Notes: a model not told the origin generated them from the letters alone. A stretch of DNA of 64,000 nucleotides from Arcanobacterium buesumense (GCF_012563545.1 NZ_CP050804.1:1843285-1907284), one strand, 5' to 3'. Numbered from the stretch's first letter, positions 6,185 to 63,212 are shown. Translations and numbers: made by a program.

Positions 6185-6302
6185 CACATTTTCTCCTTGA
6201 GTAGACACCATTGTCTTACCCTGCATACTACGACATTTATTCAACAGACATCTCACCAAACATCTATGCAAAGGATTTCGCAAAATTTCAACCTTTTTAC
6301 AT

Positions 6303-6341
6303 AAAAGGCCGTGAAGTGAACATGTCACTTCACGGCCTTTT
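6303..6341 (-). terminator. Terminator hairpin between the GlsB-like gene and the sialidase gene. Stem aaaaggccgtgaagtga / tcacttcacggcctttt.
   Basis: 17-bp perfect inverted repeat with a 5-nt loop. A/T runs flank both sides. Confidence 0.45.
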
Positions 6342-6352
6342 AAGCTAAATAA

Positions 6353-6616
6353 CTACTTGTTACGCATCTGCCTACCAGCATAAAAGCCAATCGCTGCCAT
6401 CGCAGTCAACGTACAAACAATCCATCGGATCCAATCAATACCTCGGGTATCAAGCGGATAGCCAAAAACAGATAGTAGAGCATTCCCAAGCACAACACCG
6501 ACCACGCCCAAAACAACCGTAGCTATGATCGAAAGATCCGCGCCCTTAAAAAACTTAGCTAAAATCCCAATAACAGCTCCAAAAACAAGCGTTCCAAGAA
6601 TATTAAACACCGACAT
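6353..6616 (-). CDS. GlsB/YeaQ/YmgE-family small membrane protein (transglycosylase-associated protein family)
   Basis: 87 aa with three hydrophobic helices rich in G/A/V/L, typical of this family (GTLVFGAVIGILAKF...). This is a family-level call made from memory. Confidence 0.55.
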   Translation of the reverse strand: MSVFNILGTLVFGAVIGILAKFFKGADLSIIATVVLGVVGVVLGNALLSVFGYPLDTRGIDWIRWIVCTLTAMAAIGFYAGRQMRNK

Positions 6617-6978
6617 CCTCCCCTAGCTAACAACTACACGCAACTCACAGCTGCGCAAATACCACGTCATATCAGTCTAACCTTCAAGAAACCGTTAATC
6701 GCTTTTGTCAGCTAACCGAGAAATATCAGCTTATACGGTCACCTGTGAAAGAATATAAGAAGTGAGTGGCTGTCCACGCAACAGCCACTCACTTCTTATG
6801 TTGGTAATTATATCTACATAGCATCAAGACTGCACTTATCTTGATACCGATTAACTACCAGATATTCACTTTCCGCATTCTTCAGGAGTTACACACTAAG
6901 AGGTTCCTTCAGATGCTTATATCTAACCAGCTCAAGCTATAAAACCAATGCGCAATAGCTGGGAATTACCTGAAAGTT

Positions 6979-27774: not shown

Positions 27775-30484
27775 TGAAATGCAATAAACGCCTCGTTGGC
27801 ACGGCTTTGGGGCTGTGTCTTTTAACGTCATCGTTGCAGACTGGAATAATTGATGTTTTTCGGAACACAATTGACTGCTCATGCGGCTGTTGTTCAAGAT
27901 GATAGTCAACAACAAGTTGTCCCACAAGAAGTGAAAGATTATCTAGCCCAAAAGATCAATTGGAGAACTCAACACTTGCCCCCAAGAGGAAAATTGATGT
28001 CGCAACAGTGCAAGAGTACCTCGTAAAAGGCATTTCTGAGATGCAAGGTGCCATCGTTTTTATGGTGACTGCGATCTTTCCGATAAAGCAATCGCTCCCC
28101 TTATTTATAGCTATCCCTATGGTTCGCTGATTAAGCATGTTGCTGGCGAATGGAAAGTTGACAAAGAAGAAACCTCTTTCGAAAAGGGGTTATATAAGCA
28201 TACTGTGCGGTTTGCTTACCTTGTGAAGAAAGACGATGCGATCCGCGCCGATCAGCGTATTGATGAAATCGCTCAGTATTTGACTGCTAAGCTCAAGGAC
28301 CAAAAGGACGCATCTAAATCAGGTGACAGCGAGGATTATCGCAAAGCTCGACTCATCCATGATTACATCATTAAAAACGTTGAACCAGAAGCAGACGATA
28401 AGACCTCTAGCGGACAGTATTATGTTGACTCTGCTGAGGGCGACGGCAAGAAGTATGAAATCCACTCCCTCGAAGCTGGATTGTTCGCCCATAAAGGCGT
28501 CTGCCAAACGTATGCCATCATGTTTGATCGTATTGCTTCTCGAATGGGGCTAGACACTCGTTACATTCGTGGCAAGAAGACCTTTGGTTACTATGCCGAA
28601 GACGATACTCGAGCAAAGGAACGCATTGAGAAGCAGATTGAAGCCGGTAGGAAGATCGCGGCTAAAGGCGGACGCTGGCCAGATGCTAACCATTCATGGA
28701 ACCAAGTAAAAATTGATGGGCAGTGGTACCACCTCGATCTGACGGTTGACGCTGTTGCTGCACGTGTAGCCTATAAGTACACGTATGGCGGATTCTTGCT
28801 CACAGATGAGGAGTTTGGAAAGCCTGCGTCGTGGTGGCTTGGCGTTTTCAACAATAAGAGCTACTACACATACGTAGACGTTATGTGGAACCAGAGCGAG
28901 GCTCAACCAGCAACCACGCCAATGAACTTCGGTTCATTATTCAACGCGAAACATTTTTCACGCCCGATATTGCCTCACCTAGACGGAAAATACCATCCAT
29001 TAGGTAGCTTTAACGATTTGACTCAAGGCACCATTTCTACTCATACCACTTCTGAGCAAGCACAACCAGTGACCCAGATTGTCTCTGCGTACGGGGCTGA
29101 CGAAAAGGCGGAGATAGCTGCTGGCACATCAGCAGATGAGTTACTAAAGCTTCTCAAGGTACAGGGAATCACTACCCAGACTCAAGCAGAATATGTTCTT
29201 GGCACGATTGAAGATTCTCCAGTGTCACTCGAAACACCCGATGAATGGACTGCGGTCAAGGATACAATTGACTCACAGGTCGATCTTCATTCAGTAGCTG
29301 AAAATGGCGCCAAACTTACAATCCCAGTAGCTGTTGTTAAACCGGGAACGGAATCTCACGCGCTAGCCCGTATCCAGGCGAAGAATGGCAGCGCACATAT
29401 CGATCAGATTCATCCACAAGGCGAGAGCTATGACGAACGAGTGGATAAAGATGCCTATGAGGCACAGCGTAAAGTTGCCGAGGCAACAATCCTTTCTGAT
29501 ATTACATCTTCTTATACAGACGGTGACACCAACACATCAACCATTCACGTCTCTGTTCAAGGACTAGATACCATCAAGCTCGATACTCCTGGCGAATACC
29601 CGGTAGTCGTGGTTGCTCAGGGTAAAGATGGCTTGTGGACGAAGCTTGATTACCAGGTCGTCGTCGACGAAAAACAACGCCCAAGTAGCGTAACGATTAC
29701 CACCAAGGATAATGCGGACGTGTTGAACGTTGCCTCGGATACCAAATATTATGTTGATCCGTCATCGTTCCATAGCTTCTTAGGTAAACGCGAAGGCGTT
29801 AACTTAATTGCCAAGCGCACCAATTCATTCGGGCTAACGTCCCAGGTCGACGAAACTATCTCTTTCGTTGATTCCGCCGGCAAAGAGTGGCCACACAACG
29901 AAAGCGAAGATATATTTATCGACGCTGATGGCAACCGGTTGTTTAACGACATAAAGATGGTTGACCTGGTTCGTAAAGCAGGTTCATACCGGATTAAAGT
30001 AACCGCTCAGTACGCTCAAGAAGCCCCGAAGGTTCGTTACATCACCGTCAATATTACGAATGGCGACGATCAGGCATCTGAGGCAGCACAGCATGAGGCT
30101 ATTATGACCGTTGACCGGCTTGAGAATCTTTCGATGACGTCGAAGATCAAGTATGAGAATGAAATTCGGGAGCTTTCTTCGGCAAGCGCTATTGCTGATG
30201 TTGTTAAGCGAGCTACGAATGATCTCTCAGAAAAGACGTCTGTTTCATACATTGTGGAACACGTTGACAAGGAAACTGGTCAAGCTCTCACTTACCCAGT
30301 GAAGAAAATCGACTTCGTTGGGGCTACGGTAAAAGAGCAGGCCGACAGCTATCTTTTGAGCAAGGGACACCTGGTTGATCTGACAGAACAAGAGCTGCGG
30401 TTAACTGGCGGAGGTCAAAAGATTACTTTCACGTATTCGCGTCAGGCTGATCCGGCAAACCAGACCGATACTGTAGCAGAATAA
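27775..30484 (+). pseudogene. Secreted transglutaminase-like cysteine-protease-domain protein with C-terminal repeat/Ig-like region. The 5' 430 bp is broken by at least three frameshifts. The intact distal ORF is 28205-30484.
   Basis: RBS-preceded ATG at 27775 encodes a signal peptide (MKCNKRLVGTALGLCLLTSSLQTG) but stops at 27900. Protein-like sequence continues in two other frames and then in the 28205 ORF frame from about 28040 with no start codon. TGase-like core motifs GVCQTYAIMF...HSWNQVKIDGQWYHLDLT (Cys-His-Asp). Confidence 0.55.
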
Positions 30485-30746
30485 GCCAACTATAATCACA
30501 AATATCACGGTGGGGAGCAGGCCGATTTTACAGTACTATAGGAATGTATTTCCTCGCAAATGAGAAACGACAACCTATTATGATAACTTTCGCTATTTTA
30601 GCCATTATCGGTACCGCAATTATTCTTCTTTCAGTGATTTTGATGGCGTCTTTGACCTCATTATTCCTGATGATTTCTTAGGTTTTCCGCTTCTGCTATC
30701 TGCTGGTTTAGCATTCACGCTGATTGGGTGTTCTGGCGCCATCGCT

Positions 30747-31157
30747 ATGGGTAGTGGAGCACGTGGCGGTACGGTTTATGCCGTTATTTGCGTTGTGACG
30801 ATTATTGGACTATTAATTTTTGCCAGGTTTTACCGGCTGTTAGCTTCTGCGGCGAAAAAGTCCGAGATTGAAGAATCAGTTGTTGGAAAAGAATTTATTG
30901 TTGTTTCGACGATGGACAACATTGTTCGTGGCACAGTACGTTTTCGTGGATCCGACGTTGAATTCTTAGCTCATGCACCGCACGATGAAACTAGTATCGC
31001 ACCTGGCGATAAGTTCACTGTTTTATCTGATGTTCGCCCCTACATTACAATTACCCGCATTGACGAATGCCTAAAGAAGACACTGTCACTGTTTGAAAAG
31101 AAAGACTATGGACATTATGGAAGCTATTTTACTTCTACCCCGTTTTTGTTGCGCTAG
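30747..31157 (+). CDS. NfeD-like membrane protein with C-terminal OB-fold (partner of SPFH/flotillin proteins). It is probably frameshifted: the upstream TM segment (ATG at about 30580) is in the -1 frame.
   Basis: TM + charged linker + beta-rich C-terminal domain typical of short NfeD. Upstream in-frame codons encode hydrophobic GFPLLLSAGLAFTLIGCSGAIA without a start. A 34-aa hydrophobic ORF (MITFAILAIIGTAIILLSVILMASLTSLFLMIS) in the other frame looks like the original N-terminus. Confidence 0.55.
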   Translation: MGSGARGGTVYAVICVVTIIGLLIFARFYRLLASAAKKSEIEESVVGKEFIVVSTMDNIVRGTVRFRGSDVEFLAHAPHDETSIAPGDKFTVLSDVRPYITITRIDECLKKTLSLFEKKDYGHYGSYFTSTPFLLR

Positions 31158-31168
31158 CAATTATCGCC

Positions 31169-32465
31169 GTGCTAGCTGCACTCCACCTTCTTGTTTCTCG
31201 CCTACGAATCGCTGGCCCTGATGAGGCTCTTGTTATTTCCGGTGCTGGGGAATCTGGGGCGATGAAAATTGTTCCTCCGGGTGGCAAAGTTTTTGTTGTG
31301 CCGATTTTGCAGAGCACTTCTAAGATTTCGTTGGAAGCCTACAAGATTCCGTTGTGATTGACTGCCTTGACCGGTCCACAATTCCACTCGATATTGAAGC
31401 AGTGGCAATGGTCAAGATTGGTCGTCGAACTCATCGATTCGGGCTGCATCAGAACGTTTCAATGGCCGTCAAGAAACACTGCCAGACTCCGTCGTCGAAG
31501 TTCTTTCCGGAACTCTACGTTCGGTCGCTGGCCGATTGTCTGTATCGGAACTTATTTCTGATCGTGAAACGTTCTCCAGCCAGGTCGCGCAAGGCGCCGA
31601 AGAAGATCTCGCACGTATGGGCATCCCTGTTGATACGCTACAAATCAAAGATATCTCGGATAAAAACGACTACATCATGGCGTTAAGTGCCCCAGAAGCA
31701 CAACGAGTCTCACGTATTGCGCGCGTAGCAACGGCAGAAAATGAGACGCAGGCAAACGAAGCTGAAGCTGAATCAAAGCGTAAGATCGCTGAACAGAACA
31801 AGGATCTGGAAGTCTACCAGGCCGAAATGAAGCGCATGACGATGGAAGCCCGGGCGATTGCGGATGCGGCTGAGCCGATCGAACGCGCGAAGCAAGAAAA
31901 GCTGATTACGTTGCGCGAGCAGGAAGTCGCCGAGCAAAAGGCTGTTTTGAAGGAACGCGAACTGGAAGCCAGCGTTCGCAAACCGGCTGATGCGGAACGT
32001 TACCGCGTTGAGGTTCAAACTGAGGCTCGCAAGGTTGAGGCCGTGTTGAAGGCAGAAGCCGATGCGGAAGCAATCAAGAAGACCGGTAATGCTCAAGCAG
32101 AAGCAAGCAAGGCTCTTGGTTTGGCGCAGGCAGAAGCAGACAAGGCTCAAGGTTTGGCACGTGCTGAGGCCGACAAGGCTCAAGGTTTGGCAGAAGCAAC
32201 TGCGATGGACGCCAAGGCGTACGAATGCATCGATAAGATGACCGTCATTTCAACCGATGGCACAACCGCCCTCACCCGTGGAGTGACCAACAACGTCAGC
32301 CAGCTCAACGAAGTTATCAACGATCTGTTAGGCATCAACTTGGGAACGCTCACCAGCGGAATCTTGCAATCCACCAAGCTATTCCAAACAGAAGATCATC
32401 AGGCCGAGACAGAGGGCCATGATGCTGAGCTATCCGCCCCGAAAACCGGGCTGGATGAGGAGTAA
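31169..32465 (+). pseudogene. Flotillin-like SPFH (band-7) protein gene disrupted by at least two internal frameshifts plus a probable one at the 5' end
   Basis: Pieces in three frames: LAALHLLVSRLRIAGPDEALVISG..KISLEAYKIPL (frame 2), VIDCLDRSTIPLDIEAVAMVKIG (frame 1), ASERFNGRQETLPDSVVEVLSGTLRSVAGRLSVSELISDRETF... and a long Ala/Glu/Lys coiled coil (frame 0). Together they reconstitute a flotillin (FloT/YuaG-like) layout. Confidence 0.6.
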
Positions 32466-32499
32466 CTTTCTGTTTCTGCTAGACCATCTGGAGAAAAGG

Positions 32500-32528
32500 A
32501 TTGACAGTTGACATACGCCAAAATATGA
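32500..32528 (+). promoter_or_regulatory. Sigma-70-like promoter for the putative tracrRNA. -35 TTGACA (32500-32505), 17-bp spacer, -10 TATGAT (32523-32528).
   Basis: Consensus hexamers with canonical spacing, read directly from the sequence. Confidence 0.4.
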
Positions 32529-32534
32529 TGGGTG

Positions 32535-32640
32535 TGTAACTGATTTCTCAGTAAGCTCTACCATGTTTGTAGAGTTGAATGCTCCACCGGTTTCCGGTTT
32601 TATATTCGGGCTGTGTTTTTCAACACGGCCCGAATATTTT
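32535..32640 (+). ncRNA. tracrRNA: Putative tracrRNA of the type II-C system: 5' anti-repeat, nexus-like hairpin, two further hairpins, intrinsic terminator ending in TTTTT
   Basis: GUGUAACUGAUUUCUCAGU is complementary (one bulge, a few G:U pairs) to the 5' half of the repeat as transcribed from the minus strand (GCUGGGAGUCAGUUACAUAAC). Hairpins ctctac..gtagag and ccgg..ccgg, terminator attcgggc..gcccgaat + ATATTTTT, directly upstream of cas9. Confidence 0.55.
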
Positions 32641-32655
32641 TGCCATAATAGTGTC

Positions 32656-35600
32656 ATGTCTGATGTTATTAATTTTCGTGTAGGTATTGATGTTGGCACT
32701 AATTCAGTGGGTTTAGCCGCTATAGAAATTGGGCCAGATAATTTGCCGTCGAAAATCCTTAATTCTGTAGTTTTTACGCATGATGGTGGCGTGGATCCAC
32801 AAAATCGCAAAACAGCAGCGACTCGGTTAGCTGTCTCGGGAGTGGCCCGTCGAACACGTAGACTCATTCGACGGAGAAAACAACGTCTCCGTGCTCTTGA
32901 TGTTTTCCTACAATCCCATGGATATCCTTGCCCAAACCTTGAAGAGTTCGACGATCCTCACTTTCCGTGGCATGCTCGCGCTCAACTGGTTTCTGAGCCT
33001 GTTGCACAAGAAGAACTACCTGAACTTTTTTCCGTTGCGATACGGCATATAGCCCGCCATCGGGGATGGCGTAATCCTTATTCACGAGTAGAATCACTGC
33101 ATCTGCCAACACCGCCTTCAGAGGAATTGAATAACCTCAAAAATAGACTGATTGAAGAAACCGGAGTCGTACTAGATGAAGATGCGACACCTGCAGAAAT
33201 AATCACTGAAGTTATCTCAGATATGCGAAAGATACGTGGTCCTGAAGGAATCCTCGGTGGAAAACTTCGCCAGTCAGATAACGCAAATGAGATTCGTAAA
33301 ATTGGCGAAGTTCAAGGATTGGATTCCTCTTTTATTAATGACGTTATTGATCATGTGTTCGCTGCCGAATCTCCTAAAGGAAGTTCCGCAAAACGTGCCG
33401 GGAAGGATGAACTTCCAGGCCAGCACGACAAGTTCCGTGCCGAAAAGGCGCATCCTGCATTCCAGGAGTTCCGAATTGTTTCAGTAGTAGCAAATCTACG
33501 TATCAAAGATCTTGAGACAGGAAGTATCCGTAAGCTTACCCGCGATGAGATGGATACAGTTGTTACATATTTAATGAATGCTTCTGCTGAAGATTCTGTT
33601 ACATGGGATGACGTTGCTACCAAATTAGAGATTTCTAGAGATTGTTTATCTGGAACAGCTTCACCTGGCCCAGATGGTGATCGCCCTTATTTGATCCCAC
33701 CAACTAACACAACAAATCAACGCATACTTGAGTCTAAGCTAAAACCGCTTATTGCTTTTTGGAAGAATGCAGATCTAGATACTCGGTCTACACTGATTAA
33801 CGAGATGTCGAATTCATCAGAGATTACCGATGATTCCCCAGGAGCAGAAGAAGTTCATGACTTCTTGACTTCTTTAGCAGACACAGAATTAGAAAAACTA
33901 TCAACAATTAGTCTTCCCGCCGGAAGAGCGGCTTATTCGGTAGATTCACTTCAACGCTTGTCTCGGCGGATGCTTAACGATGGCGTTGATCTTTTCACCG
34001 CACGCAAATTAGAGTTTGATGTGCCTGATGATTGGCGCCCATCAGCTGCCCCTATAGGCGATCCAGTTGGCAATCCTGGAGTTGATAGAGTTCTTAAAAT
34101 TGTTAACCGCTGGTTAATGAATGTTACCGACAAATGGGGAGTTCCAGCCACAGTAAATATCGAGCATATTCGCGGTGGATTTGGTTCCGAAGCTATGGCT
34201 CGTGAATATGAACGTGAAGTTGGACAGCGCTTCAAGCGCAATCAAATGATTATCGCCAAAATACAAAAAGATAATGACATTAGTGGACCTGTCCGTTCCG
34301 CAGATATTACCCGCTACTTGGCCGTTAAGCGCCAAAATGGGGCATGCGCGTATTGTGGTACAACTATTTCTCTGGGAACTTGCGAAATGGATCATATTGT
34401 TCCACGAAAGGGACAAGGCTCTACAAATAGTCGATCCAATTTATTGGCTACCTGCCGTTCTTGTAACCATAGCAAGGGAAATAGGTTGTTTAACTTATGG
34501 GCTAAAGAACAGAACAACCCTAATATCTCATTTGAAAAAGCAAAGGATAGAATCACGTTCTGGATTAAGGATGACGGCTTATCACCAAAACAATGGAACC
34601 AGTTTAAGCGTGATATCATTATGCGACTTGGTCGAGTTACCGAAGATGACGAACTTGATTCACGCTCTATCGAATCAGTTGCTTGGATGGCGAGAGAGCT
34701 TCGCCATCGTATTGAGTCTCATTATTTGTCTACAGGTTCCGATACAAAAGTTAACGTTTTTAAGGGAATGATAACGTCAGAAGCTCGCAAGGCTTCTGGC
34801 TTTGAAATGCAAGTAGAGATGATAGGCGATCGTGGAAAAACACGATTGGATCGACGTCATCATGCTATGGATGCTTGCACTATCGCACTAATGTCTCCTT
34901 ATGTTGCACAGGTGTTGGCTGAGCGCATTAATTTACGAGAGTACCAGCAACTTACTCGTGAACGATTCACCTGGAAAGAGTACCGAGGAAAGGATGAAAC
35001 TCATCGTATTTCCTATGGTAAGTGGCTTAACTCTATGAATCGTCTGTTAGTTCTGTTCAACGAGGCACTGCGCTCTGATTCGATTCCAATTATGGAAGAT
35101 CTTCGTTTACGTCTTGGAAATGGTACTGCTCATGATGCCACTATCCATAAGTTTGGCAAGAAACGCCTTGGTGACGCATGGTCATTCGAAGATATCGACA
35201 AGGCTTCAACCCCACAAATGTGGCTAGCATTAACTCGTTGTTCTGATTTTGACCAAAAGGATGGTCTTCCAGAAAATCCTGAGCGAACTATACGAGTCAA
35301 AGATGTCTACTATACTGCTGATGATGAACTGGAGTTGTTCCGAACTAAGGCAGCACTACTTTCGGTACGCGGAGGTTATGCAGAAATTGGTAATACTATT
35401 CACCATGCTCGCATTTACCGTATCAACGGAAAGAAGATCTCCTATGCGATGGTACGAGTTTTCGCAGTAGATCTTCATAAACACCGCCATGAGGATTTAT
35501 TTAATGTTGTCCTTCCTCCGGAATCTATTTCAATAAGAACTGCTGCGCCAAAAATTAAGCAGGCATTGGCTGATGGAACTGCTGAGTATCTTGGTTGGGT

Positions 35601-35940
35601 TGTTGCTGGGGATGAAATTGAAATCATTCCGTCAGATCCTAAGGCCTTCGCCAAAGGCGCTATAGGTGAATTATTTGAGGATTTCCCTGGGTTGACACGT
35701 TTTAAGCTAGTTGGATTCGACTCTCCTTCAAAACTACGTTTGCGACCAGTCAAGCTTTCTAGCGAAGGCCTCAATGACAACTTTACTTCAGGTAGCCACG
35801 ACATTATTGCTAAAGCTGGGTGGCGTCCAGAAATCAATGTCGTATTTAGCAAAGCTCAAGTACGCGTCATCCGAAGAACTACTTTAGGAAACATTCGGAA
35901 TACCAGTAGTTCACATCTTCCATCATCATGGCAGGTCTAA
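32656..35940 (+). CDS. cas9: Type II-C CRISPR-associated endonuclease Cas9 (compact, about 1094 aa)
   Basis: RuvC-I GIDVGTNSVGLA, RuvC-II NIEHIRGG, HNH DHIVPRKGQGSTNSRSNLLATCRSCNHSKGN, RuvC-III HHAMDACTIAL. Followed by cas1-cas2. Start placed at MSDVINF. The longer ORF from 32563 would overlap the tracrRNA. Confidence 0.95.
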   Translation: MSDVINFRVGIDVGTNSVGLAAIEIGPDNLPSKILNSVVFTHDGGVDPQNRKTAATRLAVSGVARRTRRLIRRRKQRLRALDVFLQSHGYPCPNLEEFDDPHFPWHARAQLVSEPVAQEELPELFSVAIRHIARHRGWRNPYSRVESLHLPTPPSEELNNLKNRLIEETGVVLDEDATPAEIITEVISDMRKIRGPEGILGGKLRQSDNANEIRKIGEVQGLDSSFINDVIDHVFAAESPKGSSAKRAGKDELPGQHDKFRAEKAHPAFQEFRIVSVVANLRIKDLETGSIRKLTRDEMDTVVTYLMNASAEDSVTWDDVATKLEISRDCLSGTASPGPDGDRPYLIPPTNTTNQRILESKLKPLIAFWKNADLDTRSTLINEMSNSSEITDDSPGAEEVHDFLTSLADTELEKLSTISLPAGRAAYSVDSLQRLSRRMLNDGVDLFTARKLEFDVPDDWRPSAAPIGDPVGNPGVDRVLKIVNRWLMNVTDKWGVPATVNIEHIRGGFGSEAMAREYEREVGQRFKRNQMIIAKIQKDNDISGPVRSADITRYLAVKRQNGACAYCGTTISLGTCEMDHIVPRKGQGSTNSRSNLLATCRSCNHSKGNRLFNLWAKEQNNPNISFEKAKDRITFWIKDDGLSPKQWNQFKRDIIMRLGRVTEDDELDSRSIESVAWMARELRHRIESHYLSTGSDTKVNVFKGMITSEARKASGFEMQVEMIGDRGKTRLDRRHHAMDACTIALMSPYVAQVLAERINLREYQQLTRERFTWKEYRGKDETHRISYGKWLNSMNRLLVLFNEALRSDSIPIMEDLRLRLGNGTAHDATIHKFGKKRLGDAWSFEDIDKASTPQMWLALTRCSDFDQKDGLPENPERTIRVKDVYYTADDELELFRTKAALLSVRGGYAEIGNTIHHARIYRINGKKISYAMVRVFAVDLHKHRHEDLFNVVLPPESISIRTAAPKIKQALADGTAEYLGWVVAGDEIEIIPSDPKAFAKGAIGELFEDFPGLTRFKLVGFDSPSKLRLRPVKLSSEGLNDNFTSGSHDIIAKAGWRPEINVVFSKAQVRVIRRTTLGNIRNTSSSHLPSSWQV

Positions 35941-36863
35941 CTACTGAAAGATGGAGGTCCTTGGACTTTAGTCAGTTCAGGGGCTCTATCTCAGCTGTTC
36001 GTGGAGCGTTGTCGGTTAAAAATGATGAATTAGATCTGACTGTCCCAACAGCTGATGTTAGTGTCGTTCTTATTGGCGTTGGCACAAAACTATCTGCCGG
36101 AGCTATGCACCGTCTCTTAGAAGATGATGTTGCAGTTATTTTTTGTGATTGGAAGGGCGTTCCCTATGGTGGTTCTTTTGGATGGAGCGATCATAGCCGA
36201 GTAGGTGCTCGCCATCGTGCCCAAGCTTCTCTCTCGGAGCCAAAAAGAAAATCGACCTGGGCTCGTATCGTAAAGGCAAAAATTTTAGGTCAAGCGGCCG
36301 TGCTTGACTACTGTTCACGTCCCGGGGGCTCCTTACTGCGTAACCTATCAAAAAATGTACGATCTGGTGATACTTCTAATGTTGAAGGTCAAGCGGCAAG
36401 ATCTTATTGGCAATATTTGTGGGGTGATGAAGGATTTAAACGGCAGCCGGGAATACGGGATCAAGTTCTTCCAAGTAACTCAATGCTTGACTACGGTTAT
36501 ACAATTCTTAGAGGTCACGCGATACGGGCGGTTTTTAGCGCAGGTTTATCGCCAACTATTGGGTTGTTTCATCATGGGCGTTCCAATTATTTTGCACTTG
36601 CAGATGACATTATTGAGCCATTTCGCCCTGCGATAGATGCGTGTATCGCATCAGAGTTTTCCGGTGAATCAATTGAAAGTCCTGACATTCGCAGAGCTAT
36701 CGTTGAGGTTGCACATTCCACTTTCGGACAGACTGGGAATTCCATTCCAACTGAAATGACAGCTCTTGCTCAACGTTTAGGACAATTAATCGAAGGGGAT
36801 CCACAGAAGCTATTGGTTAATGTGTGGTCGCCTATTATGACCTTAGGCATCACAGATGAGTAG
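35928..36863 (+). CDS. cas1: CRISPR-associated endonuclease Cas1 (type II)
   Basis: Conserved Cas1 blocks (..LDYGYTILRG.., acidic C-terminal region). Start overlaps the cas9 stop. Confidence 0.9.
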   Translation: MAGLTTERWRSLDFSQFRGSISAVRGALSVKNDELDLTVPTADVSVVLIGVGTKLSAGAMHRLLEDDVAVIFCDWKGVPYGGSFGWSDHSRVGARHRAQASLSEPKRKSTWARIVKAKILGQAAVLDYCSRPGGSLLRNLSKNVRSGDTSNVEGQAARSYWQYLWGDEGFKRQPGIRDQVLPSNSMLDYGYTILRGHAIRAVFSAGLSPTIGLFHHGRSNYFALADDIIEPFRPAIDACIASEFSGESIESPDIRRAIVEVAHSTFGQTGNSIPTEMTALAQRLGQLIEGDPQKLLVNVWSPIMTLGITDE

Positions 36864-37176
36864 TGATCCCATGTGGTGTCTTGTAATGTTTGACTTACCA
36901 ACGAAAACAGCTTCACAAAAACGTGAGTATTCGTCATTTCGAAATTATTTGTTAGATATTGGTTTTTCTCGTGTGCAATATAGTGTTTACGTACACTACT
37001 CCCCCACAGGGCTTATTGGTACTCGTCTAGTCAAGGGAATCAAAGCTAATCTTCCGCCTGGTGGCGAGGTTAGGATTGTTCACATCAGCGATAGACAATG
37101 GTCCAAAGCATTTCGTTTTGCTAATGCAATTGAAGAAAAACCAGAAGAAGCTCCCCAGCAATTAATGATTTTTTAG
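36856..37176 (+). CDS. cas2: CRISPR-associated endoribonuclease Cas2
   Basis: About 100 aa. N-terminal LVMFDLP pattern typical of Cas2. Overlaps the cas1 stop. Confidence 0.85.
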   Translation: MSSDPMWCLVMFDLPTKTASQKREYSSFRNYLLDIGFSRVQYSVYVHYSPTGLIGTRLVKGIKANLPPGGEVRIVHISDRQWSKAFRFANAIEEKPEEAPQQLMIF

Positions 37177-37226
37177 TGTTTGGGGCACCATTTTTTGTTG
37201 AAATAGTGCCCCAAACACTAACTCCT

Positions 37227-38030
37227 TAAGTCTATCAAGGAGTTATGTAACTGACTCCCAGCCCTCGATTTTAGCTGCTCTGGCATCGTCTAAGTCTATC
37301 AAGGAGTTATGTAACTGACTCCCAGCCCTGAACAGCTCCATGCGAATACTCGATTAAGTCTATCAAGGAGTTATGTAACTGACTCCCAGCACGCCACCCT
37401 GGCTTACTGAACGTGCCGTAAGTCTATCAAGGAGTTATGTAACTGACTCCCAGCGCTGCGGCGCGAACCAGAAGCAGAAGCTTAAGTCTATCAAGGAGTT
37501 ATGTAACTGACTCCCAGCCTGGCCTTGCACTTGTTGCATTTCGATCTAAGTCTATCAAGGAGTTATGTAACTGACTCCCAGCCGCGGTATCTGGGAAATC
37601 CCGGACGTTGTAAGTCTATCAAGGAGTTATGTAACTGACTCCCAGCCTAACGATAACAGGATCGGCAAAGCCCATAAGTCTATCAAGGAGTTATGTAACT
37701 GACTCCCAGCCACTCTTTCAGGCATCGCACAAAAGTTCTAAGTCTATCAAGGAGTTATGTAACTGACTCCCAGCTAGAAGAAGCTATCGAACAGATTGGC
37801 GCTAAGTCTATCAAGGAGTTATGTAACTGACTCCCAGCGGCGAAAATAGTTAGGTTTACAGCGTCTTAAGTCTATCAAGGAGTTATGTAACTGACTCCCA
37901 GCCTATTCTAGGGGTTCCACGCGTGATACTTAAGTCTATCAAGGAGTTATGTAACTGACTCCCAGCAACCGCAACAAATCAACGAAAAGGCGCGTAAGCC
38001 CCTTAAGGAATTACGCAGCCAGATCCCAAC
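37227..38030. CRISPR. CRISPR array: 12 identical 36-nt repeats (taagtctatcaaggagttatgtaactgactcccagc) plus one degenerate terminal repeat (37995-38030), 12 spacers of 28 nt, period 64. It is probably transcribed on the minus strand.
   Basis: Repeat positions counted directly: 37227, 37291, 37355, 37419, 37483, 37547, 37611, 37675, 37739, 37803, 37867, 37931, and degenerate at 37995. Confidence 0.95.
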
Positions 38031-38621
38031 ACTAGCGAAGATACATTCTTGGAACGCCCCAACCAAATCGCTCCTATTTTCAAGCACAATCATCTTCTTT
38101 TCAAGCGCAATTATCTTCGCGCTTGGTGTAAATTTTATTTGGAACTCATATACGTTCCGAGCAATTGTAGCTCGGCTGACGGTATGAGTTTTCTGTTTTC
38201 TAAATTAACTCCAAGTGAACGCCCTTAACCCCAAGCAAACACCGCCTTTGGTCTTAGTTTACTTTCTCAATGTTCCCGATTCTAATACGATCATCACGCC
38301 TACCCACCCTGCCGACATAGTGGATACCGGTTTCTCAATGCGGCACTCTTCCTTTGTGCATTATTAAATGCGTTATGGATTTATATTCTCTTTCAAAGGC
38401 TTCACTACAAGGAGACAAATCGCTTCCCGCTACATTGCGGGAGCAGCTGAGTCGCATCTTGTTGATGTAGAATCGTTGCAAAATTACTCAAGGTTTGAAC
38501 AATCAATTGGTTTATTTAATGCTTGACCAGTCAGCCAGATAAAGGGGCTAAGAGCCATGTCAAATAGGTCATTTTTATGCGATGCAGAGCAACAGCCTTT
38601 GCCAGACGGTGAAAACGGCAA

Positions 38622-38807
38622 GTGTGGCAGGTGTCGTTTATTGATGACGATGGCATGCTGTTGTTTGACAATGGCGGTGTCACTTTCGATAAGAAAACAG
38701 CGTTCTCATTGTTCCGTTCTTTTCCCCATGATTTTACGCAAGAACAGATAGAAATTATTAAAAGGCAGTTGCCGCACTGGTATGACTTCTTTTCTGATCG
38801 CTTATAA
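38622..38807 (+). CDS. Hypothetical small protein (61 aa) in the AT-rich region downstream of the array
   Basis: Protein-like composition (MWQVSFIDDDGMLLFDNGGVTFDKKTAFSLFRSF...). Weak start context. It overlaps alternative ORFs on both strands. Confidence 0.2.
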   Translation: MWQVSFIDDDGMLLFDNGGVTFDKKTAFSLFRSFPHDFTQEQIEIIKRQLPHWYDFFSDRL

Positions 38808-38983
38808 AACGCCTTAACATCCCCCACAGCAAGCCGAGATATCGATCAATACACGAAGACCATACCGATACCCGAGCTACGATTGCTCGGCTCAGTATGG
38901 GCTTCATTTCTAACAGTAGCAGGGAAACTCACCGTCGTCGAAAAATCGTTCTTGATTGACGACGACGGCCTGCCACTTTCGTT

Positions 38984-40057
38984 CTACTTCCTCTCCGCCC
39001 CGTCGTAGACCCGATCAGCTATCGCACACATCTGTTCATATTTGCGTTCAATATCTGCAACCAAAGCGATCTGGTTACGGGCACGGACTAGATTGTGTTC
39101 CGGATAGTCAGTAGCAAAGTAAATATCGCCGTCGAGGTAATCGGTTAAGAACCGCATACCACATTCCGCCGTCATCAACTTCGCCGAAAAAGCAAACAAG
39201 TCGAGTTCAGCGGGAGTGAGAGTTTCCCGCAAAGCCGGGATGAAACCTTCGCAGTATGCGGTGTAAAGATCGAGGCTGAAACCTACTTTCGAACGATCTT
39301 TTTCGTCTTCATCGGCAAGGGCAGCGCCGGTACGTAGCGCATCGCCGAAATCGTAGAGTAAGGAACCGGGCATGACGGTGTCAAGATCGATCACTGCTCG
39401 GGCTTCGCCGGTATCTGCATCAAGCAAGATGTTGTTGATCTTGGTGTCATTATGGGTGACGCGAGAGGGAATCTCCCCGCTAGCCATCAGGTCTGTCACA
39501 CGCGAATACTCAGCGGCCCGCTCCATAAAGAACGCGATCTCGTCTGGCACATCAGCCACTCGCCCAGCCGTATCTTTTTCGATCGACGTCAACAAGTTCT
39601 GGTATCGAGTCGGAGTGTGGTGGAAGAACGGAATCGTTTCAGTCAACATAGTAGCATCGAAATCCGCCAAATCGCGCTGGAATTGACCAAACGTAGCAGC
39701 AACTGAACGAACCATATCTGGCGAGGTTGCCAAACTGTAGGAGCGCGAATTATCGATATACCGATACATTCGGAAGAACTCATCGCCATGCTTTAAGTAA
39801 AGCGCGCCATCGAGCGTCGGAATAATCTCCAACGTCTCTTTGCCTTTTTTCACCAAATGTTCCGTAACAAGTTTGATGTTATTCATCAAACTATCGACGT
39901 CGGTAAACACTGTCGTATTAATCTGCTGAACAATATAGTCAGCACTATCGGTTGTTACTCGATAGGTGCGGTTAATATGACCATCACCCCAGCGATCACA
40001 CGATGTAATATCCCCAGAAATACGGAACTGACGTGCAATATCTATAACGTCATTCAT
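38984..40057 (-). CDS. nahK: N-acetylhexosamine 1-kinase (aminoglycoside-phosphotransferase-fold), GNB/LNB pathway
   Basis: APH-fold motifs (HNDTKINNILLD, DLDTVMPG). Lies immediately downstream of the GH112 phosphorylase, as in lnpA-lnpB operons. Confidence 0.7.
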   Translation of the reverse strand: MNDVIDIARQFRISGDITSCDRWGDGHINRTYRVTTDSADYIVQQINTTVFTDVDSLMNNIKLVTEHLVKKGKETLEIIPTLDGALYLKHGDEFFRMYRYIDNSRSYSLATSPDMVRSVAATFGQFQRDLADFDATMLTETIPFFHHTPTRYQNLLTSIEKDTAGRVADVPDEIAFFMERAAEYSRVTDLMASGEIPSRVTHNDTKINNILLDADTGEARAVIDLDTVMPGSLLYDFGDALRTGAALADEDEKDRSKVGFSLDLYTAYCEGFIPALRETLTPAELDLFAFSAKLMTAECGMRFLTDYLDGDIYFATDYPEHNLVRARNQIALVADIERKYEQMCAIADRVYDGAERK

Positions 40058-42216
40058 GCCAATTCCTTCCATACGATTGCCGAAGGCGCCAAATCAAAGT
40101 TCTCACTCTGACCCCTTGGCAAGCTGACCACGGTTTGTTGTGGCTTCTCGGAATTATTCATTACAGCATAGATGTTCTTATCCGCAAAATAGGCGACTTC
40201 ACATTCGGGGTTTGATGAGCCCCAAACAGCATACTGGTCTTCCTTATGTGCCGCATAGAACAAGGCGCGCTCTAGCAACCGTGCATTCAGCGCCGAATAT
40301 GGCAGACCAGAAAGATAGACGCCTCGCCCGTCGTCGTACGTATTAACTGCGAGCTGAACCTGCCCGTCAAGCCCAGAAATCACGGTTGTTTCCTCCGAAA
40401 TTGGGAAGGTGTTTATTACCGCTTCACCAAAATCGAGGCTTTCGCGCGGAATATCTTGGATAACAAAATGATCTTCCGTCAGGTCAGGCCAGTATTTGTC
40501 GACGTTGAGGCTACGGTAGATTTCTTGATCGACGCCGAGGATATCCGCAAGTTGGAAATAACGTCCACCATGTTCGACGGCGCTCGGCTGGCCAACTCCC
40601 ACAAATCCCTTGCCGGAGCTTACCCACGAACGGATAAGCGAAACCAGTTGCGGATTCTTCCAGGCTTGCGCACCCGAGTATGCGGTTCCTTGCGGACCGG
40701 CGTTAATAATAACGTCAATCTCCGGGTCAATACCGTTGGCGAGGACGTCGTCGAAACTCAAGAAACGTACGTTGACTCGCATACCAGAAAGAGCTTCAAG
40801 AATACCGTAGAACGAACGGTTGTACTTGTTCGGCAATGCGTGGGCGACTGTAAACTCTTGCCAGGATCGGCGAGCACCCCACGCATCCAACAGCGCCACG
40901 GTCAATTGTGTTTGCGCACCCTTGCCACTACACTTGTCATAAATATCGCGGAATTCGTTCGCAATTGTTGCTACGTCGTCGACGAACTTCGGGAACTTCG
41001 CTGCCAAAGACAGGTAGCCACCGTACCCCATGCGCTCAAGTGGCGAACGTAAAATAGCACGCCGGGCTTTGCGCCAATTATCCCACGCTTCGATAGACGG
41101 ATCAGCACCCTCATAGAACGAATCCGGGAAGAAGTACGGCAAGAAACGACCCTCGTGATACTTAACGCCCTTAATGTCAGCGATCATGCGGGTGGTGGTG
41201 CCGTCACCTACCGAACCTACGATCGCATCCATACCCACATTCGGGAATGTTGAACTGTATGGTTCTGTGCCGATCCACTGGTCGCCGAGGAACATCATGG
41301 CTTCTTTGCCAGCGGCTTGAACTCGCTCAACCATTTGTTTCATTAATGAGTGGACGAAATTGGCGGTGAAATCAAGCCAGTCGCGTTGTTCTTTGCTGGG
41401 GTAGACGAAGGAGGAACCGTAGGAGCCGCCGTCGACGAAGTGTTCTGGACGCATCCGATAACCATACTCACGTTCGAACTCATCGAGCGCACGCGGCGAA
41501 ACCGTCACCGCAAAACCAGTCCAGTCCACGATCTTTTCTTTGCGTTCGTTGTTGAAAATCAGCATGAACTGGTAGAAGAACGTAGTGAAGCGAACGACGT
41601 CGACATGCGGGTTATCCACCAACCACTTATCCAAGGTGTTCAGCATAAAATCTTGGATTTCCGGGTGACGTGGATCGAACGCGATTTCGTGTTCCTTATC
41701 GCCCCAATCGTTGGTGATGTGGTTGTACATCTGCACCGGATCCCAAATGACGTACGCCAAGAATGTCACGGTGTATTCGTGCATCGGATGAGCGTTGTGA
41801 ATATGAACGACGTCGGTGTGCGGATCGAGCTCCCACTGGTCGATGGGCAGGACTTCACCGGAAGTACGGTCAATAACTTCCCAGAAACGTTGCGGCGCAG
41901 CGTCCCGGTTAATGGTGAGCTGCTCGGCAAAATAGGTGACCATCAACGGCACATCAACCGTGGTGTCCGTGGCGCGGGTACGTTCCGACATCAGGTAGAC
42001 CATGGGCACGCAGTCCATATGATCTTTCATAAAATAGTTGTGACCGCGGTTAGGGAAATATGCCGAATATATACGTTTGCCCATGTTGATGACGTCGTCA
42101 TCGAGGTGGGTGCCGTCTGAATTACGGATAGCATCCGCACCCCATTTTTCGGCTAACTCAGTGGACTGCTGAATAAAGTTTTCTTCGGTAGGTATAGTAA
42201 AGCGACCAACGCTCAT
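40054..42216 (-). CDS. lnpA: 1,3-beta-galactosyl-N-acetylhexosamine phosphorylase (lacto-N-biose / galacto-N-biose phosphorylase, GH112)
   Basis: Full-length match to the remembered GH112 sequence pattern (GRFTIPTEENF..., WGADAIRNSDGTHLD, GDKEHEI, RFTTFFYQF, GDQWIGTEPY, RSPLERMGYGGYLSLAAKFPKFVD, NPECEV). GAGGGAG RBS before the ATG at 42216. Confidence 0.9.
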   Translation of the reverse strand: MSVGRFTIPTEENFIQQSTELAEKWGADAIRNSDGTHLDDDVINMGKRIYSAYFPNRGHNYFMKDHMDCVPMVYLMSERTRATDTTVDVPLMVTYFAEQLTINRDAAPQRFWEVIDRTSGEVLPIDQWELDPHTDVVHIHNAHPMHEYTVTFLAYVIWDPVQMYNHITNDWGDKEHEIAFDPRHPEIQDFMLNTLDKWLVDNPHVDVVRFTTFFYQFMLIFNNERKEKIVDWTGFAVTVSPRALDEFEREYGYRMRPEHFVDGGSYGSSFVYPSKEQRDWLDFTANFVHSLMKQMVERVQAAGKEAMMFLGDQWIGTEPYSSTFPNVGMDAIVGSVGDGTTTRMIADIKGVKYHEGRFLPYFFPDSFYEGADPSIEAWDNWRKARRAILRSPLERMGYGGYLSLAAKFPKFVDDVATIANEFRDIYDKCSGKGAQTQLTVALLDAWGARRSWQEFTVAHALPNKYNRSFYGILEALSGMRVNVRFLSFDDVLANGIDPEIDVIINAGPQGTAYSGAQAWKNPQLVSLIRSWVSSGKGFVGVGQPSAVEHGGRYFQLADILGVDQEIYRSLNVDKYWPDLTEDHFVIQDIPRESLDFGEAVINTFPISEETTVISGLDGQVQLAVNTYDDGRGVYLSGLPYSALNARLLERALFYAAHKEDQYAVWGSSNPECEVAYFADKNIYAVMNNSEKPQQTVVSLPRGQSENFDLAPSAIVWKELA

Positions 42217-42350
42217 ATTTACTCCCTCATAACAGGTACTCACGGCAAGGTATAAGCATCCCTCAGCTGTGCCAGTGGAACGATCAGCGACTGGCTTGGA
42301 GAGTCCACGATGACACTCCACAACTGCAAAAATCGTAGCACAAAATAAAC

Positions 42351-62441: not shown

Positions 62442-63212
62442 ATGAACCACCGTAAAGTTATTATTTCTCTCATTGCGTTACTAACAGCTGCCGCATTAGT
62501 TATCGGTTTGATTGTTTCTGGGTTTTTCCTTGGTGGTGGGAAAACACCGGCGGCACACAACACTTCGGCATCGCAATCTGCGCAAGATTCACCATCAGCA
62601 CAACCGTCTAACGAAGAAAATGGTGCTGCGGAGCAAAAACTATCTCCGGAGGTTATACAAGTTATTGACAATCAACATCGGTTGATTGCTGATGATCCGC
62701 GAGCGCTGGGAAACCTCGATGCCCCGGTTATTATTGAAATGTATTCTGATTACCGTTGTGGTCATTGCCGGGATTGGACTCTTCATACTTTGCCGGAGTT
62801 ACAGTCGTTACTCGATGAGGGCAAGATCCGTATTGAATACAATTCCATGCCGGTTCTTGGGGATGATTCAGTCCTCATTGCGCAGGCTTCACATGCGGCC
62901 GCATCGCAACATAAGTTTTGGGAGTTCCATAAGGAGTTATTCGCTAACCCACCCCAGCCAACTAAGGAAGCTTTGACTGCACTAGCTGGTTCGTTGGGGA
63001 TGGATGAGGATGCGTTTGCTGCTGAGATGGTTGCCGAGCAGACGGTGAAGGATGTGACTGGCGAACGTGAGCATGGAGTTGCGCTTGGTATTACTGGGAC
63101 GCCGTCGTTCCTTATCGGTTATTCGTTTGTTCCGGGGGCGTTGCCGGCCGATAAGTTTATTGACGTTATCAATAAAGAATTAGTTCGCCCTGATCCGCAT
63201 ACTGAAAATTAA
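62442..63212 (+). CDS. DsbA-family thiol:disulfide oxidoreductase (membrane-anchored thioredoxin fold)
   Basis: N-terminal TM. CxxC active site CGHCRDW in a thioredoxin-like context. Confidence 0.75.
   Translation: MNHRKVIISLIALLTAAALVIGLIVSGFFLGGGKTPAAHNTSASQSAQDSPSAQPSNEENGAAEQKLSPEVIQVIDNQHRLIADDPRALGNLDAPVIIEMYSDYRCGHCRDWTLHTLPELQSLLDEGKIRIEYNSMPVLGDDSVLIAQASHAAASQHKFWEFHKELFANPPQPTKEALTALAGSLGMDEDAFAAEMVAEQTVKDVTGEREHGVALGITGTPSFLIGYSFVPGALPADKFIDVINKELVRPDPHTEN

Follow-up and report, generated by a model that had tools for sequence, protein, structure and literature searches.

The repeat box of the type II-C array of Neisseria meningitidis, TGcTACAAT, lies flush with the repeat end. 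This type II-C CRISPR-Cas9 system was reportedly studied by Zhang et al. in 2013. Its crRNAs begin at the sixth nucleotide of the spacer and derive from promoters embedded in the repeats. In the minimal type II-C system of Campylobacter jejuni, each repeat also ends in an extended -10-like box (GGTAAAAT), primary crRNA 5' ends lie at spacer nucleotide 5 (Dugar et al. 2013), and RNase III and tracrRNA make only the 3' end of the crRNA. The layout has been shown experimentally in these two species and is now treated as general for type II-C. An extra degenerate repeat at the transcription-upstream end and a leader at the downstream end have been described for type II-C arrays (Feussner et al. 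2025), an arrangement that matches the array described below.

Among the Actinomycetota, the type II-C systems of Bifidobacterium, Corynebacterium diphtheriae and Actinomyces naeslundii share a Cas9 clade with the locus studied here (40-50% identity), together with 36-nt repeats of the form GYTGGG...TGATAnACTTn and 28-nt spacers. In Bifidobacterium bombi and B. longum, the type II-C tracrRNA is located upstream of cas9 on the cas strand, as here; with regard to repeat promoters, the word "promoter" is absent from both Bifidobacterium papers. Chylinski et al., on the assumption that arrays are co-directional, detected no anti-repeat in C. diphtheriae, B. longum or B. dentium; an opposite array orientation may account for that early survey missing them. 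Our literature search found nothing relevant on start-site or crRNA mapping in the type II-C arrays of Corynebacterium, Actinomyces or Bifidobacterium, and no paper describing the repeat-promoter layout in the Actinomycetota clade. The promoters of such hosts are better described. In Mycobacterium tuberculosis and Corynebacterium glutamicum, TANNNT is the main promoter determinant, the -35 element is weak, and TGN marks the strongest promoters, although start sites have been mapped to no more than about 18% of the TGNTANNNT copies in M. tuberculosis.

Here we describe the type II-C locus of Arcanobacterium buesumense, contained in a 64,000-nt stretch of its genome (GCF_012563545.1 NZ_CP050804.1:1843285-1907284; hereafter the window). 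The locus resembles that of N. meningitidis in having only cas9, cas1 and cas2, 36-nt repeats, an array read toward the cas genes, a leader, and presumably spacer uptake, at the transcription-downstream end, and an extended -10-like box at the crRNA-sense 3' end of the repeat, with a start predicted here inside the spacer. It differs in that its Cas9 belongs to another clade, that of Actinomyces and Corynebacterium, and in that its predicted tracrRNA lies upstream of cas9 on the cas strand. N. meningitidis combines 30-nt spacers with a start at nucleotide 6, whereas the Arcanobacterium box sits 2 nt inside the repeat and is paired with 28-nt spacers, so that a similar guide length would result. 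From C. jejuni, in which the box is flush with the repeat end, Arcanobacterium differs in host sigma factor, genome AT content, box sequence and a predicted anti-repeat of only ~16-17 nt. Like actinobacterial extended -10 promoters (TGnTAnnnT), the element has TG at -15/-14 followed by TANNNT, an architecture that needs no -35; unlike them, it is a putative promoter that lies inside a CRISPR repeat and recurs every 64 nt.

The cas genes and the repeat array

The cas genes, the leader and the array are arranged as follows.

32656-35940, plus strand: cas9, 1094 aa (TIGR01865), 100% identical to Arcanobacterium buesumense Cas9
35928-36863, plus strand: cas1 of the type II (NMENI) family (TIGR03639)
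36856-37176, plus strand: cas2 (TIGR01573)
37177-37226, minus strand: leader of ~50 nt between cas2 and the array
37227-38030, minus strand (crRNA sense): CRISPR array with 12 intact 36-nt repeats, 12 spacers of 28 nt and 1 degenerate terminal repeat

All three cas genes are on the plus strand, csn2 and cas4 are absent, and the neighbouring open reading frames are unrelated to CRISPR. With cas9, cas1 and cas2 as its sole cas genes, the locus is type II-C; an earlier note on this DNA likened its array to the II-C arrays of N. meningitidis. Relatives of the Cas9 occur in Trueperella, Actinomyces, Corynebacterium, Bifidobacterium, Gardnerella and Propionibacteriaceae. A comparison set of 80 related Actinomycetota type II-C loci was assembled through Cas9 alignment, and their arrays were found by script.

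The cas9 gene starts at the ATG at 32656 and not at the open reading frame start at 32563, as indicated by the RuvC-I motif GIDVGTNSVG and the family profile. The longest open reading frame, which begins 93 nt early (32563-32655), would cover most of the tracrRNA gene and is an annotation trap. The element TGcCATAAT (32641-32649) immediately follows the tracrRNA terminator and is separated by 6 nt from the ATG of cas9. A Shine-Dalgarno sequence is absent from the interval 32641-32658, and the cas9 mRNA is probably leaderless. This arrangement of TGcCATAAT and cas9 start recurs in L001, L004, L006, L047 and L061 of the comparison set, and Corynebacterium loci have an AGGAG leader at cas9 in place of the leaderless layout.

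The 12 intact repeats are identical copies of TAAGTCTATCAAGGAGTTATGTAACTGACTCCCAGC on the plus strand, with starts at 37227 + 64n and a period of 64 nt. Read on the minus strand, the repeat is GCTGGGAGTCAGTTACATAACTCCTTGATAGACTTA and ends in ...CCTTGATAGACTTA. This end contains TGaTAGACT, which fits TGnTAnnnT and stops 2 nt short of the repeat end. The motif listing for the window gives TGATAGACT on the minus strand at 12 sites in 64-nt steps, from 37229-37237 to 37933-37941.

37229-37237, minus strand: TGATAGACT box of repeat 1 (cas2-proximal, last transcribed), pointing into the leader, with no spacer
37293-37301, minus strand: TGATAGACT box of repeat 2, upstream of spacer 37263-37290
37357-37365, minus strand: TGATAGACT box of repeat 3 (motif listing)
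37421-37429, minus strand: TGATAGACT box of repeat 4 (motif listing)
37485-37493, minus strand: TGATAGACT box of repeat 5 (motif listing)
37549-37557, minus strand: TGATAGACT box of repeat 6 (motif listing)
37613-37621, minus strand: TGATAGACT box of repeat 7 (motif listing)
37677-37685, minus strand: TGATAGACT box of repeat 8 (motif listing)
37741-37749, minus strand: TGATAGACT box of repeat 9 (motif listing)
37805-37813, minus strand: TGATAGACT box of repeat 10 (motif listing)
37869-37877, minus strand: TGATAGACT box of repeat 11 (motif listing)
37933-37941, minus strand: TGATAGACT box of repeat 12, upstream of spacer 37903-37930
37995-38030, minus strand: degenerate 13th repeat with 13 mismatches, at the transcription-upstream, cas-distal end

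In the degenerate repeat, TGATAGACT has become TAAGGGGCT through changes in the G of TG and in hexamer bases 1, 2 and 4, and the tracrRNA-pairing part of this repeat (37995-38030) is mutated as well. Because the box is destroyed, the oldest spacer (37967-37994) is left without a repeat promoter. The earlier note had placed a box in every repeat; this holds for the 12 intact copies and fails for the degenerate 13th, giving 12 of 13 overall.

Within the window, the motif carries little weight. The 64 kb contain 92 TGNTANNNT sites, of which 80 fall outside the array; the number expected from chance is higher, at 107 +/- 10. Because the repeats are copies of one another, their 12 boxes count as one independent, low-information observation, and by our estimate such a motif would arise by chance in 2-5% of cases anywhere in a 36-mer and in ~0.3% at that end and on that strand. 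The hexamer TAGACT matches TATAAT at 4 of 6 positions, with T1, A2 and T6 present and TG at -15/-14. The best -35 candidate, GAGTCA at a distance of 17 nt, matches at 3 of 6 positions when read by eye, and a sigma-70 scan with a threshold of at least 4/6 matches in both hexamers reported no site in the repeats, since they lack a -35 match. The motif in the window is thus weak evidence by itself; it is its conservation in related loci that sets it beyond chance.

Several other features of the window were noted. On the minus strand, the terminal repeat and the first nucleotides of the oldest spacer (37985-38030) could form a small hairpin with a U-rich segment behind it (GCGUAA...UUACGC GCCUUUUCGUUGAUUUG). 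This structure is terminator-like and could block the entry of upstream transcription, as proposed for some type II-C arrays, or could be a product of chance. Beyond the cas-distal end of the array, 500 nt of non-coding DNA include two tandem 21-nt direct repeats at 38072-38113, TCCTATTTTCAAGCACAATCA and TCTTCTTTTCAAGCGCAATTA, which are overlapped by a minus-strand promoter-like site, TTGAAA-17-GAAAAT (9/12), the sole such site in those 500 nt. Genes for a lacto-N-biose phosphorylase and a phosphotransferase-family kinase (38984-42321, minus strand) are aimed at the array and are a possible source of read-through. The best same-strand partial match to the plus-strand repeat, TCCATAAGGAGTTATTCGCTAACCCACCCCAGC at 62926-62958, lies within a 256-aa open reading frame and was judged to be chance. 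The 20-nt seeds of four spacers, compared with viral contigs in search of the PAM side as independent evidence of strand, gave 0 matches.

tracrRNA and the direction of array transcription

The predicted tracrRNA gene lies upstream of cas9 and consists of the following elements.

32501-32529, plus strand: tracrRNA promoter, TTGACA, 17 nt, TATGAT
32536-32641, plus strand: predicted tracrRNA, upstream of cas9
32536-32552, plus strand: anti-repeat, from RNA duplex scoring with G·U allowed
32555-32575, plus strand: nexus hairpin, from covariation
32602-32637, plus strand: strong terminator stem, with a T run to 32641

An Rfam search of 28000-42000 at E <= 1 returned 0 matches, which indicates that there is no curated tracrRNA model for this clade, and a plain DNA alignment search for the anti-repeat gave nothing convincing. 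The anti-repeat surfaced solely with RNA duplex scoring that allows G·U pairs, as the partner of the minus-strand repeat transcript; a partner complementary to the 5' part of the plus-strand repeat was not found in the locus. Across the family, an anti-repeat is present on the plus strand 80-250 nt upstream of cas9 in ~55 of 62 loci and covaries with the repeat. In the first 14 positions of 38 distinct repeat/anti-repeat pairs, 424 Watson-Crick pairs, 69 G·U pairs and 7 A·C mismatches were counted. Because G·U pairs turn into A·C mismatches when the opposite strands are read, the excess of G·U (69) over A·C (7) identifies the crRNA as the strand starting GCUGGG, which is the minus strand here.

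The strand of the predicted tracrRNA is fixed by its promoter, its covarying hairpin and its terminators. Promoters of the related loci have a TTGACA-like element, a spacing of 17-18 nt and TAnnnT, at a fixed distance. The nexus hairpin shows double compensatory changes in 7 of 7 pairs, with 94.7% of cells paired and 0 of 500 shuffles as good, and the terminators that follow the tracrRNA are likewise on the plus strand. From these comparisons it is close to certain that the array is transcribed on the minus strand, opposite the cas operon and toward cas2. The earlier note had also proposed that the array is transcribed antisense to the cas operon, in agreement with the strand of the anti-repeat and with a degenerate repeat at the cas-distal end. 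Its antisense orientation is borne out by the G·U count and the strand of the tracrRNA, its reading of the anti-repeat by the pairing of the plus-strand anti-repeat with the minus-strand repeat transcript, and its placement of the degenerate repeat by the position at 37995-38030, the transcription-upstream end, as described for type II-C.

The predicted start of the tracrRNA leaves an anti-repeat of ~16-17 nt (32536-32552) with one bulge, which falls short of the duplex length commonly depicted for co-processing by RNase III. Pairing of the conserved repeat end with a longer tracrRNA was considered and rejected, as the conserved promoter puts the start only ~17 nt before the end of the anti-repeat; repeat nucleotides 17-36 are therefore predicted to be unpaired. 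In two Actinomyces loci (L010, Actinomyces sp. S6-Spd3, and L015, A. marseillensis; arrays at ~14534), the array is inverted as a whole relative to cas9, degenerate stub and leader included, so that the leader is cas-distal and the array acts as an orientation-independent cassette. The tracrRNA of both loci still matches the GYTGGG strand despite the inversion.

The repeat end, terminal repeats and leaders across the Cas9 clade

The 80 related loci contain 53 distinct repeats. TANNNT is present in register in all 53 and TGN in 48, leaving five family repeats without TG; on the opposite strand, TANNNT is found in 1 of the 53 and TGNTANNNT in none (0/53). The extended -10-like box at the repeat end, proposed earlier for this array, is thus conserved in register across the Cas9 clade. 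Its third hexamer base is near random (0.19 bit), as are the positions just upstream, which indicates that unconstrained positions have had time to drift. Gardnerella repeats carry a perfect TGaTATAAT. The -10 hexamers of the tracrRNA promoters in the same loci, which have good -35 boxes, include TATGCT, TATACT, TAAGCT, TAAACT and TAGACT. Because these promoters use the same kinds of hexamer, the repeat-type hexamers should be acceptable -10 boxes in their hosts. Two further positions are conserved, and neither is needed by a -10 box: hexamer base 5 is C in 51 of 53 repeats and the next base is T in 48 of 53. This conservation points to a further constraint, and the repeat end probably has a second reader, the most plausible candidates being the integrase and leader-repeat pairing.

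The two ends of the array were compared across the family. Among 47 distinct arrays, 29 have a mutated upstream terminal repeat, with the changes concentrated in nucleotides 1-20, the tracrRNA-pairing part. TANNNT is kept in 24 of these 29 mutated repeats. This pattern matches the published clustering of extra-repeat mutations in the first 15 nt, and it fits a terminal repeat that would be kept as a promoter stub for the oldest spacer; as simple decay of the outer end would look alike, it is supportive only. At the opposite end, 45 of 48 arrays have an intact cas2-proximal repeat.

On the leader side, an inverted copy of the 3' part of the repeat is found in 45 of 61 loci, where its pairing beats 95% of random controls. 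In the window, the first nucleotides of the leader, AGGAGTT, pair with repeat nucleotides 18-25 (AACTCCTT). Twenty-five inverted copies reach the hexamer, and TANNNT is kept in only 1 of these (L051) and lost in 24. At T1, A2 and T6, the leader copies are identical to the repeat in 37 of 75 cells, compared with 269 of 325 cells elsewhere (Fisher 1e-8, uncorrected for phylogeny). Among the changes, T6 to C recurs in loci of Corynebacterium, Actinomyces and Propionibacteriaceae, and Bifidobacterium copies show T1 to G. The box is disabled where it would fire the wrong way, as expected if the box is active. That leaders across the family carry an inverted copy with its box disabled was the result we least expected; the repeat box itself is sound yet would be expected by a specialist. 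In the papers searched, type II-C arrays are nowhere described as having a leader-repeat hairpin at their downstream end.

Leaders in which the hexamer is disabled and its neighbours are kept include those of L014, L016, L018, L019, L023, L027, L036 and L037, and further those of L040, L057, L059, L063, L069, L070 and L074. The leaders of L001-L080 begin with 7-10 nt complementary to repeat nucleotides ~17-25 and covary with the variable middle of the repeat; in the window (37177-37262, minus strand), AACTCCTT pairs with AAGGAGTT. In other loci, the leader copy of the 3' part of the repeat is longer than in the window. A T run is located behind the leader pairing in 19 of these 45 loci. The pairing may terminate or insulate array transcripts on the minus strand before they reach cas2; alternatively, it may serve as a signal for integration. 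The leader of the window also contains a 20-bp hairpin at 37180-37222. It was rejected as a canonical terminator on either strand, as on the plus strand the T run comes before the hairpin and on the minus strand it is an A run that comes after.

A putative promoter in each intact repeat

The reading that we consider likely is a minus-strand type II-C array with an extended -10 promoter in each intact repeat; its promoter activity, start position and 3'-end formation are what we infer. Each intact repeat, in the crRNA sense, ends in TG-a-TAGACT plus 2 nt, an extended -10 that the actinobacterial housekeeping sigma factor could use without a -35 element. RNA polymerase would start ~3-5 nt into the spacer just downstream, as the box is 2 nt further into the repeat than in C. 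jejuni and N. meningitidis. The earlier note had expected crRNA 5' ends 1-3 nt inside each spacer, which is slightly early; by analogy with the two described systems, nucleotides 3-5 are likelier. Each spacer would thereby have its own primary 5' end, which may not depend on RNase III, and a guide of ~24-26 nt out of the 28-nt spacer, a length close to that in N. meningitidis and C. jejuni with their spacers of 30 nt. The transcript would enter the next repeat, the first ~16 nt of which (GCUGGGAGUCAGUUAC...) would pair with tracrRNA, itself transcribed from a separate promoter upstream of cas9; the crRNA-repeat/tracrRNA duplex would be bound by Cas9. The 3' ends of the crRNAs would arise by RNase III or by trimming; cutting by RNase III is the less certain because the predicted anti-repeat is only ~16-17 nt. 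The cas-distal degenerate repeat would be the old, spacer-less "extra" repeat, and new spacers would presumably enter at the cas2-proximal leader. The same bases probably have a further function at the leader-repeat junction, consistent with the conserved C at hexamer base 5 and the T that follows it.

Three other explanations were weighed against this one. That the array continues the cas operon on the plus strand from a leader beside cas2, with the minus-strand box a chance match, is highly improbable. The default orientation assumed by Chylinski et al. would favour it, as would a leader-like region between cas2 and the array and a degenerate repeat far from cas2, at what is the trailer end in most CRISPR types. 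Yet that same-direction assumption yielded no anti-repeat in C. diphtheriae or Bifidobacterium, and here nothing in the locus is complementary to the 5' part of the plus-strand repeat. The anti-repeat instead pairs with the minus transcript (69 G·U pairs and 7 A·C mismatches family-wide), the strand of the tracrRNA is set by the covarying nexus hairpin, promoter and terminators, and it matches the GYTGGG strand even where the array is inverted (L010 and L015). A minus-strand array could also lack repeat promoters: the conserved TGATAnACTT would then be the leader-proximal end recognized by the Cas1-Cas2 integrase or part of a leader-repeat hairpin, and transcripts from one external promoter or from cas-distal read-through would be cut by RNase III with tracrRNA. 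We regard this as unlikely, though it would explain why conservation of the C at base 5 and of the T after it exceeds what a -10 requires, why the TGATAnACTT end abuts the leader where spacers would enter, and why 45 of 61 leaders hold a complementary copy of this part of the repeat. Minus-strand genes do lie upstream of the array, and as internal repeats are copied from the leader-adjacent one, their identity needs no selection. What this explanation leaves unaccounted for is the -10 signature itself, with T1, A2, T6 and the TG at -15/-14 conserved and base 3 free. Terminal repeats distant from the leader keep the box (24/29), and the leader copies lose exactly these bases, which neither a pairing nor an integrase role predicts. 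Moreover, 38031-38600 contains no convincing external minus-strand promoter (best site 9/12), and TGnTAnnnT-like boxes are also found at the repeat ends of unrelated type II-C clades, in which the repeats themselves differ.

A doubtful reading, though one with a somewhat better claim than the integrase or hairpin explanation, grants that the boxes are real promoters and takes them to be weak or conditional, with a few repeats, or else read-through, supplying most of the crRNA; in N. meningitidis, likewise, firing has been shown for only some of the repeat promoters. It draws on the 4/6 match of the hexamer to TATAAT, the lack of a -35 box and the minority of motif copies with start sites in M. 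tuberculosis. Against it, TGN is tied to the strongest promoters in M. tuberculosis, and with all 12 repeats identical, differences among them could come solely from the spacer around the start.

The reading with a promoter in each intact repeat fixes the crRNA strand and guide boundaries for Arcanobacterium and its relatives, including the Actinomyces naeslundii and Corynebacterium diphtheriae Cas9 enzymes. On comparative support, it would carry the layout of repeat promoters beyond Proteobacteria into a large high-GC, Gram-positive lineage, and it leaves the general picture of type II-C biology unchanged. For annotation, arrays of this clade are to be oriented by their GYTGGG end and not by the position of the degenerate repeat. 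Tentatively, the array across the clade may be a self-contained, invertible cassette composed of an upstream half-repeat reduced to its promoter part, a -10 box 2 nt inside each repeat and matched to 28-nt spacers, and a -10-dead inverted leader copy. In the minus-strand RNA, this copy would pair with the last repeat and stop or insulate array transcripts ahead of an antisense run through cas2, and it could not itself fire back into the array.

One locus of the comparison set also carries a second array. In Actinomycetaceae bacterium L2_0104 (L009), a type I-E style array with 33 copies of the 29-nt repeat GTGCTCCCCGCGCATGCGGGGATGATCCC lies at 4997-6978, upstream of the type II-C locus.
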